From Nanobdellati archaeon (GTDB lineage: Archaea; EX4484-52; WAPT01), in contig WAPT01000008.1 of NCBI GenBank assembly GCA_015520605.1, positions 1 through 23,187 of the forward strand: a DNA stretch of 23,187 nucleotides. The letters run 5' to 3'. Positions 4,151 to 9,195 of this stretch are shown here, one piece after another. The notes under the pieces are model-generated. The model ran no database searches and had not been told where the DNA came from. It saw nothing but the letters and a program-made list of their open reading frames with translations. Position 1 is the first letter of the stretch; every line of letters begins with the position of its first letter. Position numbers and translations under genes: made by a program.

Positions 4151-4345
4151 TTATTTGGTTTCCTCAATTTTTATGCACTGCACGGGGCAGATATTCGCAG
4201 CATCCTGATTGCATCCGATTTCCTCCACTTCCGTCTTTATTGGTTTTGCTTTGCCGTCGTCGCCCATCTCCCAGTTATCCGGGCAGACGGAGACACAGGC
4301 CCCGCAACCTATACAAGCCTCTTTGTCATGAACTATTCTGTACAT
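4151..4345 (-). CDS. Monocluster ferredoxin ([4Fe-4S]/[3Fe-4S])
   Basis: CIGCGACVSVCP...CPVQCI in 64 aa; GGAGGTGA SD upstream. Confidence 0.93.
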   Translation of the reverse strand: MYRIVHDKEACIGCGACVSVCPDNWEMGDDGKAKPIKTEVEEIGCNQDAANICPVQCIKIEETK

Positions 4346-4358
4346 TTTTCATCACCTC

Positions 4359-4616
4359 CTATTTCTCTTCTTCTAAGGCTTTCCTAACCTTTTCTATAGC
4401 TTCGTTTATTTCAGACACGACTCTTTTAATATCCTCCTCGTTTATTCCATGAGCAAGAAGCCCGTCCCGGAGCGTTTCCATCATCGCTATCTGACACCCT
4501 ATGCAGTGTAGACCGTACTTTAGAAGGACAGGCACGGCTTCAGGATAATTTGCTACCACCTCTCCTATTGGCATATCCTCACTGACATATTTTTTGCCTG
4601 TGGTGTCCTCGGGCAT
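4359..4616 (-). CDS. DUF1858-family protein (hybrid-cluster-protein-associated redox disulfide domain)
   Basis: DMPIGEVVANYPEAVPVLLKYGLHCIGCQIAMMETLRDGLLAHGI matches the family pattern, with a CxxC. Confidence 0.88.
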   Translation of the reverse strand: MPEDTTGKKYVSEDMPIGEVVANYPEAVPVLLKYGLHCIGCQIAMMETLRDGLLAHGINEEDIKRVVSEINEAIEKVRKALEEEK

Positions 4617-4642
4617 GTGACATTATCTGGGCACAAAAATAT

Positions 4643-5533
4643 TTATTTGGATGCCTTGCACATCTTCTCCAGCATTTTTTTCAGGTTTTTGATGGACCTC
4701 AACATTTCCCTGAGGCCGACAACCTCCACATTAAAATATAAGGGCTTGTTTTCAGCTTTCTGAATGAGGACCGGCAGGAATTCGCTATAATCTATAATGT
4801 TGTTCTCGTCTATCGCCACGTGATCCCTAATACCATCAAAGCCATGAATGTGCATTGCCACCAACCTCTTAACATGAATCTTTTTTATGATGGCTTCTTT
4901 ATCCTTTCCCGCGAAGAGGTGAGGCACATCCAGAACAAAGTAAAGGCCCTCAACGTTTTTCAGGATCCTTTCTATTTCCTTCATGCTTGAGCCGTACGGC
5001 TCGGAAAGTGACGGCACGTATGGCACGTTTTCAACCGCAACTCTGACCTTTTTTTTCTTCCCGTATTTGACCAAACTCTCGAGGCGGGAAACCAGAATGT
5101 CTTCCACCTCTCTCCGTTTCAGGTAGAATGGTGCATTTCCAGCATGAAAAAGGACGTAAGAAGCTCCAAGCGCTTCTCCAATGTCTATGGTTGCCTTTGC
5201 CTCTCTAAGAATTGCTTTCTCAAGCGCAAGTGAAGGGTTCGCAAGATTAAAGTTCAGAATCGGTCCATGAATACCGATCGGCGTCTCCTCTCCAACAAGC
5301 GATAGAACTGTTTCAACGATCTCATTCTTTTGGTTAAGTAAATCGAAATTTCCGCGAGCGTTCTCCAGCCATATCTCACAGAATTCCATAGTCTCAGCGC
5401 ATTTTCTTGCGAGTTTATTGTTCAGAAGTTTCCTGAACTCCTCCAGCGAGTAAAAGGCGAAAAACCCTCCGATTAAGATTTCTCTGTTTTTTTCGGAAAC
5501 CATTCTATCGACCTCGTTTACCGAAAGACTCAA
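4643..5533 (-). CDS. Xylose-isomerase-like/AP endonuclease 2 TIM-barrel metalloenzyme (possible CbiR-like)
   Basis: IHGP, FHAG, AVENV, LDVPH, HIHG, RDH, VEV metal-ligand motifs; start may be the ATG near 5503. Confidence 0.82.
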   Translation of the reverse strand: MSLSVNEVDRMVSEKNREILIGGFFAFYSLEEFRKLLNNKLARKCAETMEFCEIWLENARGNFDLLNQKNEIVETVLSLVGEETPIGIHGPILNFNLANPSLALEKAILREAKATIDIGEALGASYVLFHAGNAPFYLKRREVEDILVSRLESLVKYGKKKKVRVAVENVPYVPSLSEPYGSSMKEIERILKNVEGLYFVLDVPHLFAGKDKEAIIKKIHVKRLVAMHIHGFDGIRDHVAIDENNIIDYSEFLPVLIQKAENKPLYFNVEVVGLREMLRSIKNLKKMLEKMCKASK

Positions 5534-5535
5534 CT

Positions 5536-6288
5536 TCAGTATTCTATACCCTTCCTTGCAGGTATGCCTCTTCTCCAGGGGTGTTTTACCTCCCTCATCT
5601 CCGTCACGAGGTCAGCAATCTCCAGAAGTTCCGGAGGGGCGCCCCTTCCCGTTATAATTATCTCCACACCTTTCTTTCTGTTCTTAATGATCTCCACTAC
5701 CTCATCCACACTCACAAGTCCCTTATTTATAGCATGTGTAATTTCATCAAGAATTATAATATCATATGTGCCGTTGAGAGCATATTCCCTGAACATGCGT
5801 ATGGCTTTCCTTGTACGGAGATAATCCTCATCATGTATCAGAAAGCAGTACCTGCATGCGCCGCAATTCAGCACATCTCTCTCCGATGTATAGTTTCTAG
5901 GACATAATGGTTTCTGCATGCCGTTGTAAGCCGAGATCTTTATTTGTTTGCCCATCTTCACGCATCCCGTGCCAAATTGCTCGATTCTGATGAGCTTGTC
6001 CAGAAAGTTCGTTATGGACTTCACCTCTCCAGTATAGTATCCGCCCTTCAGAAATTGAAAAATAAAAACTCTATAACCATGACCCGCAGCCCTGAGTGCA
6101 AGGCCAAGAGAAGCTGTGGTCTTGCCCTTTCCATCGCCGGTATAAATCTGGACCAACCCGGGACCCCTGAGCTCTATGGGAACATTGGCCATTGCCGCAG
6201 CTACGCTACTCTCTGTATCGTTTTCAGCTTGCGGGCGAATTTCTGACGATTGTGAGCTTTCCGCACCATTTCCGTTAACCATACCCAT
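5536..6288 (-). CDS. cobO: Cob(I)alamin/cob(I)yrinic acid a,c-diamide adenosyltransferase (CobO/BtuR/CobA family) with Cys-rich insertion
   Basis: IYTGDGKGKTTASLGLALRAAGHG, QFLKG, ILDEI, ITGR, ADLVTEMREVKHP, GIEY C-terminus; exact start uncertain (6318/6288/6282). Confidence 0.93.
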   Translation of the reverse strand: MGMVNGNGAESSQSSEIRPQAENDTESSVAAAMANVPIELRGPGLVQIYTGDGKGKTTASLGLALRAAGHGYRVFIFQFLKGGYYTGEVKSITNFLDKLIRIEQFGTGCVKMGKQIKISAYNGMQKPLCPRNYTSERDVLNCGACRYCFLIHDEDYLRTRKAIRMFREYALNGTYDIIILDEITHAINKGLVSVDEVVEIIKNRKKGVEIIITGRGAPPELLEIADLVTEMREVKHPWRRGIPARKGIEY

Positions 6289-6360
6289 CGACCTGCATGG
6301 AAAGCGAACGAACCACAAAGGGAGGTTTTTGGATGAGGGGAGATTGTTTTTTAACCAGCA

Positions 6361-8532: not shown

Positions 8533-9017
8533 ACAACATCACCCTTCATCATCGTATCTGGCGGTTTCGTCTCCTTTTTGAGAAGCATGATCTCCCGCGT
8601 GAAGGAATCGACATCTTTGAACTCCTTATAAACGGATGCGAATCTTATGTAAGCAACATGATCAAGTTCTCTGAGCTTTCTCATGACTATCTCTCCTATT
8701 TCCCTGCTGCTCACTTCCACACTATCACTCTTCCTCACTTCACTTTCCACTTCCTCAACAATGCGGTCTATGACTTCTATGCTAATCGGTCTTTTTTCAC
8801 AGGCCTTCATTATCCCCCTTCTTACTTTCTCCCTGTCGAATCTCTCCCGTCTGCCGTCCTTCTTTATGACATATATATCCATCCTTTCCACTCTCTCGTA
8901 GGTGGTGAAGCGCCTCTCACACTTAAGACACATCCTCCTTCTTCTGATTGCATCATCTCCCACATCTCTCGTCTCTATCACCTTGCTCTCCGAAAACCCA
9001 CAATATGGACATTTCAC
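8529..9017 (-). CDS. nrdR: Transcriptional repressor NrdR
   Basis: KCPYC...[18 protein letters not shown] zinc ribbon, ATP cone [24 protein letters not shown] at 9017 preceded by GGGTG; stop overlaps nrdJ start (GTGA). Confidence 0.96.
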
Positions 9018-9104
9018 GCCATACACCCTATTTTCTGGTGTTCCCGACAGTTAGACGGGACATCCAGTAATGAAGATAGATAAGTCTATATCAATAACTC
9101 TGCA

Positions 9105-9120
9105 ACACAAAATGTTGTGT
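9105..9120. promoter_or_regulatory. NrdR box (gene-proximal)
   Basis: ACACAAAATGTTGTGT, a 16-bp imperfect palindrome matching the consensus acaCwAtATaTwGtgt. Confidence 0.88.
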
Positions 9121-9136
9121 GTTCCGTCTTGATCAC

Positions 9137-9152
9137 ACCCTACAAATTGTGT
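9137..9152. promoter_or_regulatory. NrdR box (promoter-proximal)
   Basis: ACCCTACAAATTGTGT; 32 bp start-to-start from the other box, the tandem spacing typical of NrdR operators. Confidence 0.82.
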
Positions 9153-9180
9153 ATCTTGATATATTATTGCACTAATTACG

Positions 9181-9195
9181 TATATAAACATTTCC
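9181..9195 (-). promoter_or_regulatory. Archaeal BRE/TATA promoter of the nrdR-nrdJ operon
   Basis: Minus strand reads GGAAATG-TTTATATA; predicted TSS near 9155-9160. Confidence 0.7.

Follow-up and report, generated by a model that had tools for sequence, protein, structure and literature searches.

Two described kinds of operon lie behind the locus analysed here: NrdR-regulated nrd operons, and operons in which a B12-dependent enzyme is encoded together with genes that recycle its cofactor. For the first kind, the portion of the published account on which we draw gives bacterial NrdR boxes of 16 bp separated by a linker of 15–16 bp (PMC13584703); for the second, the part of the source used here describes PduS as a corrin reductase needed to reactivate diol dehydratase (PMC2982820). 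The locus in question is a unit of six minus-strand genes, namely nrdR, nrdJ, cobO, a TIM-barrel gene, a DUF1858 gene and fdx, on contig WAPT01000008.1 of a Nanobdellati archaeon. The window, by which we mean the whole stretch of DNA analysed, is that entire 23,187-bp contig (C7) from a genome (G000) of 863,228 bp in 27 contigs, 90.7% complete, and the sequencing DNA runs containing it are labelled hydrothermal vent metagenome. Our best explanation, held with moderate confidence, is that the unit is an NrdR-autoregulated operon that relies on scavenged corrinoid and combines a class II ribonucleotide reductase (RNR) with functions that keep its source of the 5'-deoxyadenosyl radical charged.

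Like bacterial NrdR-controlled nrd operons, in which nrdR often regulates itself, this one has a full-length NrdR and two partially palindromic 16-bp boxes with a 16-nt linker. Unlike them, it has an archaeal (TATA/BRE) promoter in which the TATA box comes before the NrdR boxes, it adds cobO, the TIM barrel, DUF1858 and ferredoxin to the unit, and the nrdD of the same genome lacks a recognisable box. As in the pdu system, with PduO and PduS, and as with EutT, an adenosyltransferase and a proposed iron–sulfur (Fe–S) source of electrons are encoded beside an adenosylcobalamin-dependent client. The client here, however, is a ribonucleotide reductase, the adenosyltransferase belongs to the CobA type and bears a Cys-rich insertion, a 64-aa ferredoxin stands as candidate donor in place of the flavin/Fe–S protein PduS, and there is neither a reactivase nor a microcompartment. 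Among archaea, Methanosarcina barkeri reportedly has a class III operon with NrdH and a ferredoxin:disulfide reductase, a finding attributed to Wei et al. in 2015. The present unit would resemble that operon in that an archaeal RNR is encoded together with a ferredoxin-linked source of electrons, and would differ from it in having no FTR-like reductase and in using DUF1858 and ferredoxin itself, which occur with both class II and class III enzymes.

Pairing of nrdJ with an adenosyltransferase

The product of nrdJ (6361–8532) is a class II, adenosylcobalamin-dependent reductase that carries an ATP-cone at its N terminus and a CPSC tail at the other end (TIGR02504, 778 bits against a cut-off of 399.95, plus the ATP-cone; the C terminus reads ...SCPSC). 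Downstream of it, cobO (5536–6318) encodes a CobA-type ATP:corrinoid adenosyltransferase (PF02572, CobA_CobO_BtuR, E 3.5e-57, 193.8 bits against 25.7) whose P-loop, GKGKTT, is invariant in the alignment. The two genes are adjacent in all three genomes of the genus (3/3). In both assessable genomes of a sister family, f2 (G003 and G015), the gene immediately upstream of nrdJ encodes a PduO-type enzyme (PF01923, E 4.5e-46); in two further f2 genomes the contig begins ~150 nt before nrdJ, and on a short contig of G008 no adenosyltransferase was found beside nrdJ.

The pairing extends to a second DPANN order, that of G042, which we surveyed across 201 genomes with a 'Woesearchaeota' contig carrying nrdJ–cobO (L022) as the starting point. 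CobO was present in 39 of the 201 genomes and NrdJ above cut-off in 143, and in at least 32 of the 39 CobO-bearing genomes cobO followed nrdJ on the same strand at a distance of no more than 600 nt (31 by coordinates and G170 in sequence; in three the genes were not adjacent, and in four NrdJ was outside the matches listed). The nrdJ adjacency counts are lower bounds, with 150 of 307 NrdJ matches listed and coordinates compared by hand. Across prokaryotes more widely, nrdJ stood beside cobO in only 2 of 80 CobO loci, both of them DPANN (L018 and L022), with none among the 76 bacterial loci and none at the one Thermoplasmata locus; one bacterial locus (L075) had an nrdJ-like fragment ~10 kb from cobO. 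Finally, a 364-aa protein encoded on a 1960-bp contig (P0264) has an ATP-cone fused N-terminally to a CobO that carries the Cys motif described below (PF03477 plus PF02572). Because two non-homologous enzymes occupy the same position next to nrdJ and the ATP-cone has been fused to one of them, functional coupling of nrdJ to its own adenosyltransferase is well supported, in agreement with an initial annotation of this DNA, which had proposed that NrdJ comes with its own cofactor-activating enzyme.

A need for such an enzyme is consistent with the rest of the genome. In G000, at its 90.7% completeness, CbiB, CobS, CobU, CbiZ and FecCD/BtuC each gave no match, CobY not being among the families searched. 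Since none of CbiB, CobS, CobU, CbiZ and FecCD was found, the organism must scavenge a complete cobamide and would need only to adenosylate or readenosylate it; the earlier view of an archaeon unable to make B12 is borne out by the missing CbiB, CobS, CobU and CbiZ. For its companion proposal, that the module itself takes up corrinoid, no transporter was found in the FecCD/BtuC search or in the survey of the window. G000 encodes one B12-binding radical-SAM protein. NrdJ occurs in 8 of the 42 species genomes that represent the window's phylum in the collection searched, and in G000 it is not the sole reductase, since nrdD–nrdG is also present.

The CobO of the window departs from the canonical form. 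It falls below the equivalog cut-off of TIGR00708 (159.2 against 167.75 bits), and its profile matches come in two stretches, split by an insertion of ~40 aa; relative to Salmonella CobA there are ~40 additional residues between the matched stretches, and no solved CobA structure has this insertion. Aligning 18 relatives shows conservation of at least 90% for four Cys residues, C119, C152, C155 and C158 (Cx32CxxCxxC), and the pattern of CxxCxxC plus a further Cys suggests a [4Fe-4S] site. The motif is present in 6 of 78 CobO open reading frames from 79 other loci (L019–L097). Salmonella CobA, for its part, requires flavodoxin.

Several observations on CobO tell against our best explanation. 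The Cys motif is not general among nrdJ-linked CobOs: within the order of G042 it was present in only 3 of 21 CobO genes examined, and many other CobOs have an insertion of similar length without the Cys residues. The motif could instead form a Zn or structural knuckle that the enzyme can do without. Two genomes, G113 and G159, have a Cys-type CobO yet no DUF1858 match, and G000 itself encodes a second, canonical CobA of 183 aa with no insertion (G000:C2:7042-7593).

Further features of these enzymes were seen along the way. The canonical CobA is kept in all three species of the genus, where it adjoins a gene that by eye is RtcB-like, far from B12 genes. Four loci in the order of G042 (L122, L125, L127 and L128) read nrdR–nrdJ–nrdJ–cobO, with two NrdJ paralogues in tandem, and tandem CobO–CobO open frames of 350–364 aa occur in two genomes without an NrdJ match (G027:C98:14539-15519 and G041:C108:1746-2732). 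The fusion in P0264 hints at nucleotide-sensing control of cobalamin adenosylation.

Operon layout and NrdR boxes

The first gene, nrdR (8529–9026, with a likely GTG start at 9017), encodes a repressor with a Zn-ribbon and an ATP-cone, matched over its full length by TIGR00244 (181 bits against a cut-off of 124.65) and by PF22811 (E 3e-16) and PF03477 (E 4e-26). It overlaps nrdJ by 4 nt. The gap from nrdJ to cobO is 42 nt from a TTG start or 72 nt from an ATG at 6288, and that from cobO to the TIM-barrel gene is 2 nt from a TTG or 32 nt from an ATG at 5503, which is the start of database protein P0001; the TIM barrel is separated from DUF1858 by 26 nt and DUF1858 from fdx by 13 nt. The true starts of the TIM-barrel gene and of cobO are probably the internal ATGs, unlike those chosen in the initial annotation. 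On the minus strand, 3' of fdx, a T-rich stretch at 4060–4135 reads as a probable archaeal terminator, and the gene beyond it, for aIF2-gamma (2760–4034), is convergent.

Upstream of nrdR, on the same strand, a TATA box, TTTATATA, at 9181–9188 is immediately preceded by a purine-rich stretch, a block conserved in G000 and in its two congeneric species, G001 and G002. Two predicted NrdR boxes follow: box 1 at 9137–9152, with three mismatches, and box 2 at 9105–9120, with two mismatches and the best site of the genome, joined by the 16-nt linker. They emerged from a scan of the full 863,228-bp genome for 16-mers with up to three mismatches from the NrdR-box consensus, which returned 11 sites, two of them in this intergenic region, 32 bp apart from start to start; by a rough estimate, the chance of such a pair is of the order of 1e-3 or less. 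The TATA box and all 16 positions of box 1 are unchanged in G001 and G002, amid intergenic DNA that has otherwise diverged. The right half of box 2 is kept in G001, and G002 has a linker shorter by 3 nt, a correction to the initial annotation. Since the first box begins 28 nt past the TATA box, the pair covers the expected transcription start, and NrdR would repress by occluding it.

The claims made earlier about the architecture of the unit hold up well: the six genes are packed on one strand with overlaps or gaps of at most 72 nt, with their open reading frames in the positions given; all six family assignments are matched by Pfam and NCBIfam profiles; and the scan together with the conservation in congeners supports a single NrdR-box-controlled unit behind one TATA box and two boxes. 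The order of the six genes, including the flanking genes, recurs in both G001 and G002. Identity to these two species is highest for the ferredoxin (94% and 98%, respectively), followed by NrdJ (87% and 96%), NrdR (75% and 98%), CobO (72% and 89%), DUF1858 (70% and 89%) and the TIM barrel (56% and 92%). The six-gene set as a whole is not widespread; its sub-modules are.

At the nrdD–nrdG locus of G000 no NrdR box was found within three mismatches. An 85-nt region upstream of this nrdD on contig C3 (~C3:25440-25525; L115 8441–8525) contains a perfect 8+1+8 palindrome and adjoins a divergent gene of 214 aa that resembles a helix-turn-helix regulator by eye and may be another regulator of nrdD. 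Elsewhere in the window's phylum, seven species of one genus (G007, G025, G027, G029, G033, G035 and G037) have a probable NrdR–NrdD fusion, in open frames of 825–841 aa without a stop and with a full-length NrdR match (positions 1–147), for example G027:C81:3654-6035.

Ferredoxin and DUF1858 beside ribonucleotide reductases

The last two genes of the operon are small. That for DUF1858 (4359–4616) is recognised by Pfam (E 1e-17, 64.2 bits against 32.2) and by TIGR03980 (73.7 bits against 44.95), and its CxGC motif is invariant in 18 of 18 sequences, as are a Glu and a His. The 64-aa product of fdx (4151–4345) is a ferredoxin with a single predicted [4Fe-4S] cluster (Fer4_13, E 1e-11, 45.8 bits against 24.5), for which the CxxCxxC...CP motif provides the ligands; C11, C14, C17 and C53, together with an extra pair, C21/C45, are invariant in 9 of 9 orthologues. 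G000 also encodes pyruvate:ferredoxin oxidoreductase (POR), NifS/NifU and a 2x[4Fe-4S] ferredoxin on C24. Given that second ferredoxin and POR, fdx is a specialised paralogue, and the notion that it is the sole ferredoxin of the cell was rejected.

Both genes recur beside nrd genes in other lineages. In G193 the order nrdR–nrdJ–cobO (Cys type) is followed 1.1 kb on by fdx–fdx–DUF1858, in genes that overlap by 4–8 nt, and one of the two ferredoxins is 62% identical to that of the window. G170 reads nrdJ–cobO–x–thioredoxin–DUF1858–ferredoxin, the last three genes overlapping. Class III operons show the same company: nrdR–nrdD–nrdG–fdx–fdx–DUF1858 in G094, nrdD...nrdG–DUF1858–fdx in G237, nrdD–(dut/dcd)–nrdG–DUF1858 in G197, G091, G077, G122 and G156 and, in the window's phylum, nrdR–nrdD–glutaredoxin-like–nrdG–maf–DUF1858 in G031 and G039. 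Of the 48 NrdD-bearing genomes in the order of G042, 13 have DUF1858 no more than 5 kb from nrdD, and at least 10 further genomes of the order have it that close to nrdJ or cobO, against a roughly estimated chance expectation of ~2–3% (coordinates again compared by hand). When 12 loci were chosen by high DUF1858 score alone, seven had nrdG, nrdD or nrdJ within 5 kb and five had a ferredoxin gene adjacent. In the window's phylum, DUF1858 is above cut-off in 22 of 42 genomes.

The linkage in relatives that the initial annotation had proposed to look for among its downstream genes is therefore seen for fdx and DUF1858, which recur with nrd genes, and is confined to one genus for the TIM barrel. 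Its proposal that fdx supplies CobO with electrons survives in part: the ferredoxin does recur with nrd operons, but because the pair accompanies class II (nrdJ) and class III (nrdD–nrdG) enzymes alike, it is not a CobO-specific electron supply.

Domain fusions and distant likenesses bear on what DUF1858 may do. The long forms in the order of G042 (~190–200 aa) are fusions to an IscA/HesB-type Fe–S carrier (Fe-S_biosyn) in four of four cases examined, two of which were confirmed by Pfam (L162 1010–1603, L163 804–1385, L164 749–1351 and L165 546–1112); those in L162 and L164 stand directly after nifS/nifU. DUF1858 frames of ~180–240 aa are about as common in that order as the small stand-alone form. 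Against the PDB, the DUF1858 profile matched residues 1–60 of ScdA, an Fe–S repair protein (E 3.9e-4), and the corresponding Pfam family, ScdA_N (PF04405), gave E 0.014 and 15.5 bits against a cut-off of 32.5. In the portion of a review of RIC proteins used here, the N-terminal domain of ScdA is a 4-helix unit with a DfCCgG motif and an unclear role. DUF1858 shares with the ScdA_N domain of ScdA/YtfE a conserved Cys motif in a loop between helices; unlike ScdA/YtfE, it is stand-alone here, has CxGC rather than CC, lacks a hemerythrin domain and is found in the context of ribonucleotide reductase operons, not of nitrosative-stress genes. It also scores above the cut-off of TIGR03980, the 'hybrid cluster protein-associated redox disulfide domain', and most of its partners are Fe–S or metal enzymes. 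In view of the IscA fusions and the likeness to ScdA, we favour Fe–S or electron support for activating enzymes (an Fe–S CobO, or NrdG) over a thiol relay. That DUF1858 re-reduces NrdJ, as was first proposed, is possible but not favoured, for these same reasons and because a check for trxA and trxB found an ordinary thioredoxin and a TrxR-like gene already in the genome. A predicted complex of DUF1858 with ferredoxin and its 4Fe-4S cluster scored 0.11 against a mark of 0.32 and is counted neither way.

We consider it unlikely that the pair forms a ferredoxin-dependent thiol/disulfide relay feeding the reductases, in which electrons would run from the [4Fe-4S] cluster to C21/C45 of the ferredoxin, on to the CxGC of DUF1858 and, via thioredoxin, to the CPSC of NrdJ or to a thiol-type NrdD. 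Such a relay would amount to a stripped-down analogue of the ferredoxin:disulfide reductase–NrdH system reported for M. barkeri. The invariance of CxGC and of C21/C45 and the CPSC at the C terminus of NrdJ would suit it, but DUF1858 has two Cys residues only and is not known to carry a cluster by which two one-electron steps could be gated. The name 'redox disulfide domain' agrees with a relay as well, whereas the IscA-type fusions in nifSU operons and the likeness to the N terminus of ScdA point to Fe–S or iron handling. Reductant is the common need of the two RNR classes that the pair accompanies, yet thioredoxin and a TrxR-like enzyme are already encoded. Gene order offers the relay further support, in the thioredoxin–DUF1858–ferredoxin tandem of G170, in the glutaredoxin-like gene inside the nrdD operon of G031, and in G101 and G138, where DUF1858 lies between an RNR gene and the POR genes, whose products make reduced ferredoxin; two more loci, L138 and L140, have DUF1858 directly after an RNR gene with no Fe–S activator nearby and fit a thiol relay better than the Fe–S reading that we prefer. 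Pyrococcus ferredoxin has a redox-active disulfide, and any redox activity of the extra Cys pair of fdx is presumed from that protein.

DUF1858 was also seen next to other genes. In one genus of the window's phylum the gene that it directly follows, and overlaps, encodes the DNA primase small subunit (PF01896) and is not an nrd gene (L100 4759–6239 in G007 and L105 5064–6675 in G035). At L166 4160–5247 (G069:C4), the end of an EndoIV-like AP_endonuc_2 gene runs 4 nt into the start of DUF1858, a second and independent case of a TIM barrel followed by DUF1858, in which the TIM subfamily differs from that of the window.

The operon as a whole and its TIM barrel

In the operon as we picture it, NrdR would bind the tandem boxes over the transcription start and repress in response to ATP/dATP, by analogy with bacterial NrdR, and NrdJ would reduce ribonucleotides using adenosyl-cobamide. 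Beside this client, CobO would convert scavenged or damaged cob(II)/(III)amide to the adenosyl form, the pairing being observed and the chemistry taken from the family. The small, Pyrococcus-type ferredoxin, probably reduced by POR, would give the low-potential electron for Co(II) to Co(I), which may pass through a [4Fe-4S] cluster on the Cys-rich insertion of CobO. DUF1858 and ferredoxin together would act as an Fe–S/redox accessory for radical-activating enzymes, the Fe–S CobO here and NrdG in class III operons, a step drawn from recurrent gene context and domain fusions. The TIM barrel would be a genus-specific, metal-dependent add-on, most likely a phosphoesterase or isomerase from the CbiR-like fringe of its superfamily.

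Other observations tell against this account. Related genomes are not independent, so that the counts overstate its support, and in G193 an opposite-strand, cysteine-synthase-like gene stands between cobO and fdx–fdx–DUF1858. DUF1858 is found in 154 of the 201 genomes of the G042 order, far above NrdG or CobO, and adjoins non-RNR genes too, among them those for the primase PriS, hypA/hycI, POR, nifSU and an EndoIV-like gene; it may be a general factor. The complete six-gene set amounts to one evolutionary observation, since it is seen only in three congeneric species that share the flanking genes as well, and the sequencing runs in which the stretch occurs are DNA only, with no RNA run.

The near-universal presence of DUF1858 in that order, among many different neighbours, and the purely DNA-based runs would also fit a reading that we regard as quite improbable, namely that in a compacted genome the final three genes were added as passengers to an operon that is strongly expressed, and have no dedicated RNR role. 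The TIM barrel fits this reading in being genus-specific and fast-evolving, with congeners sharing 56% identity in it where NrdJ has 87%. Against the reading, fdx–DUF1858 recurs by nrd genes in varied arrangements, in two phyla and alongside both class II and class III enzymes, its proximity to nrd genes is far above the rough chance estimate, and fdx, at 94–98% within the genus, is the best conserved of the six.

The TIM-barrel gene (4643–5533, or 4643–5503 from the internal ATG) encodes a xylose-isomerase-like AP_endonuc_2 protein (PF01261, E 1e-22, 81.5 bits) that is divergent and distantly CbiR-like. In a Foldseek search against the PDB, its AlphaFold2 model (pLDDT 93.5) matched only generic sugar-epimerase TIM barrels, with a TM score of 0.77 to 3wqo, which does not single out a function. 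Across 48 sequences, seven positions never vary (H120, E158, D192, H195, H218, H228 and E260), and from these the protein is probably an active metalloenzyme. Endonuclease IV has a nine-ligand metal pattern. A housekeeping DNA-repair AP endonuclease was considered as well and is unlikely, a separate and better-scoring EndoIV-like gene being present on C13.

CbiR is the cobamide-remodelling phosphodiesterase of Akkermansia muciniphila and, in the portion of the report used here, is O2-sensitive and requires a reductant (Mok et al. 2020, PMC7733943). The protein of the window resembles CbiR, as far as that portion describes it, in its AP endonuclease 2 superfamily, its adjacent and co-oriented cobamide gene and its conserved His/Asp/Glu residues: the TIM barrel adjoins cobO in the same orientation, 2–32 nt downstream, the placement by which Mok et al. 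recognise CbiR homologues; they report a single archaeal one, listed in their Table S1. It differs in having a score under half of the family cut-off, a genome in which no nucleotide-loop assembly genes were found, and a tiny, lineage-restricted family. Its best named profile is indeed CbiR (NF041277), at 48.4 bits against a cut-off of 105; CbiR is likewise the best match for 8 of its 10 nearest relatives, and 41 of 48 match it at E ≤ 1e-10, all below the cut-off. Among 14 control genomes, 9 also show such sub-cut-off matches, as do 85 of the 201 DPANN genomes, with no match above the cut-off in either set, so that the match is non-specific and reflects mainly membership of the superfamily.

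Nor does the gene travel with its neighbours. The linkage of the TIM barrel to nrdJ is confined to one genus, and tblastn (E ≤ 1e-3) was negative for it in the 20 nrdJ–cobO loci examined in the order of G042. In a set of 1.84 billion representatives, the family accounts for three clusters at E ≤ 1e-30, after which the hits drop to 1e-18. A protein-homologue search returned two proteins only, the ESM Atlas gave superfamily clusters only, and a metagenome scan with the TIM alignment A3 found none; a search from P0007, the most CbiR-like relative, returned no protein named CbiR. Weak homologues in the window's phylum stand in unrelated gene contexts. With no loop-assembly genes found (CobS, CobU, CbiB, CbiZ), cobamide remodelling would be without its second half. 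Remodelling by this protein is unproven, and the idea that the TIM barrel processes cobamide comes out weak, given a match that is sub-threshold and non-specific and a linkage within one genus.

We therefore think it very unlikely that the unit works as the initial annotation had it, with corrinoid taken up, remodelled by the TIM barrel, reduced and adenosylated through fdx and CobO, and NrdJ re-reduced by DUF1858: that all six genes share one NrdR-box unit in a corrinoid auxotroph, that a CbiR-like gene lies next to cobO and that a reductant-requiring enzyme would be at home near fdx and DUF1858 speak for such a scheme, but it is countered by the non-specific CbiR match, by the failure to find genes for uptake or for rebuilding the cobamide after hydrolysis, by the missing TIM gene at the 20 nrdJ–cobO loci examined in the other order and the rarity of its family, and by the presence of DUF1858 and ferredoxin with class III enzymes. 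Of the self-contained module, the NrdR-controlled nrdJ with its adenosyltransferase stands, fdx and DUF1858 are reinterpreted as above, and TIM-barrel processing and uptake are not upheld.

Elsewhere, the window encodes aIF2-gamma, S6e, GatB and an ATP-dependent DNA ligase, by which the DNA is recognisable as archaeal. At 11552–15071 lie a gene for an ATPase of the type IV pilus/archaellum kind (T2SSE) and two T2SSF membrane genes; together with an archaeosortase-like gene at 17434–18021, these might form surface-appendage machinery of a host-attached archaeon.

The locus yields two leads, a CobA of Fe–S type and DUF1858 with ferredoxin as accessories of ribonucleotide reductases. Searches of one open-access library turned up no paper on an Fe–S CobA, on an nrdJ–cobO operon or on a link between DUF1858 and RNR. 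Tentatively, ferredoxin and stand-alone DUF1858 might constitute an unrecognised RNR accessory module in DPANN archaea, serving whichever enzyme provides the source of the 5'-deoxyadenosyl radical, be it a self-reducing [4Fe-4S] CobA for class II NrdJ or the radical-SAM activase NrdG for class III NrdD, with nrdJ and its adenosyltransferase as a conserved two-gene unit of B12-auxotrophic archaea. A CobA-type enzyme with its own Fe–S cluster would, if real, explain Co(II) reduction without flavodoxin, and DUF1858, a widespread orphan domain, gains a testable context in RNR operons, ferredoxin and Fe–S carrier fusions. With NrdR boxes on a TATA promoter of archaeal kind, the locus is also a simple setting in which to ask how a bacterial-type repressor acts on the archaeal transcription machinery. 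DPANN archaea have tiny genomes and obtain cofactors from others, yet their deoxynucleotides (dNTPs) must be made; the pairing suggests a rule whereby a B12-dependent reductase in such archaea keeps its adenosyltransferase physically tied to it, across two non-homologous families of that enzyme.

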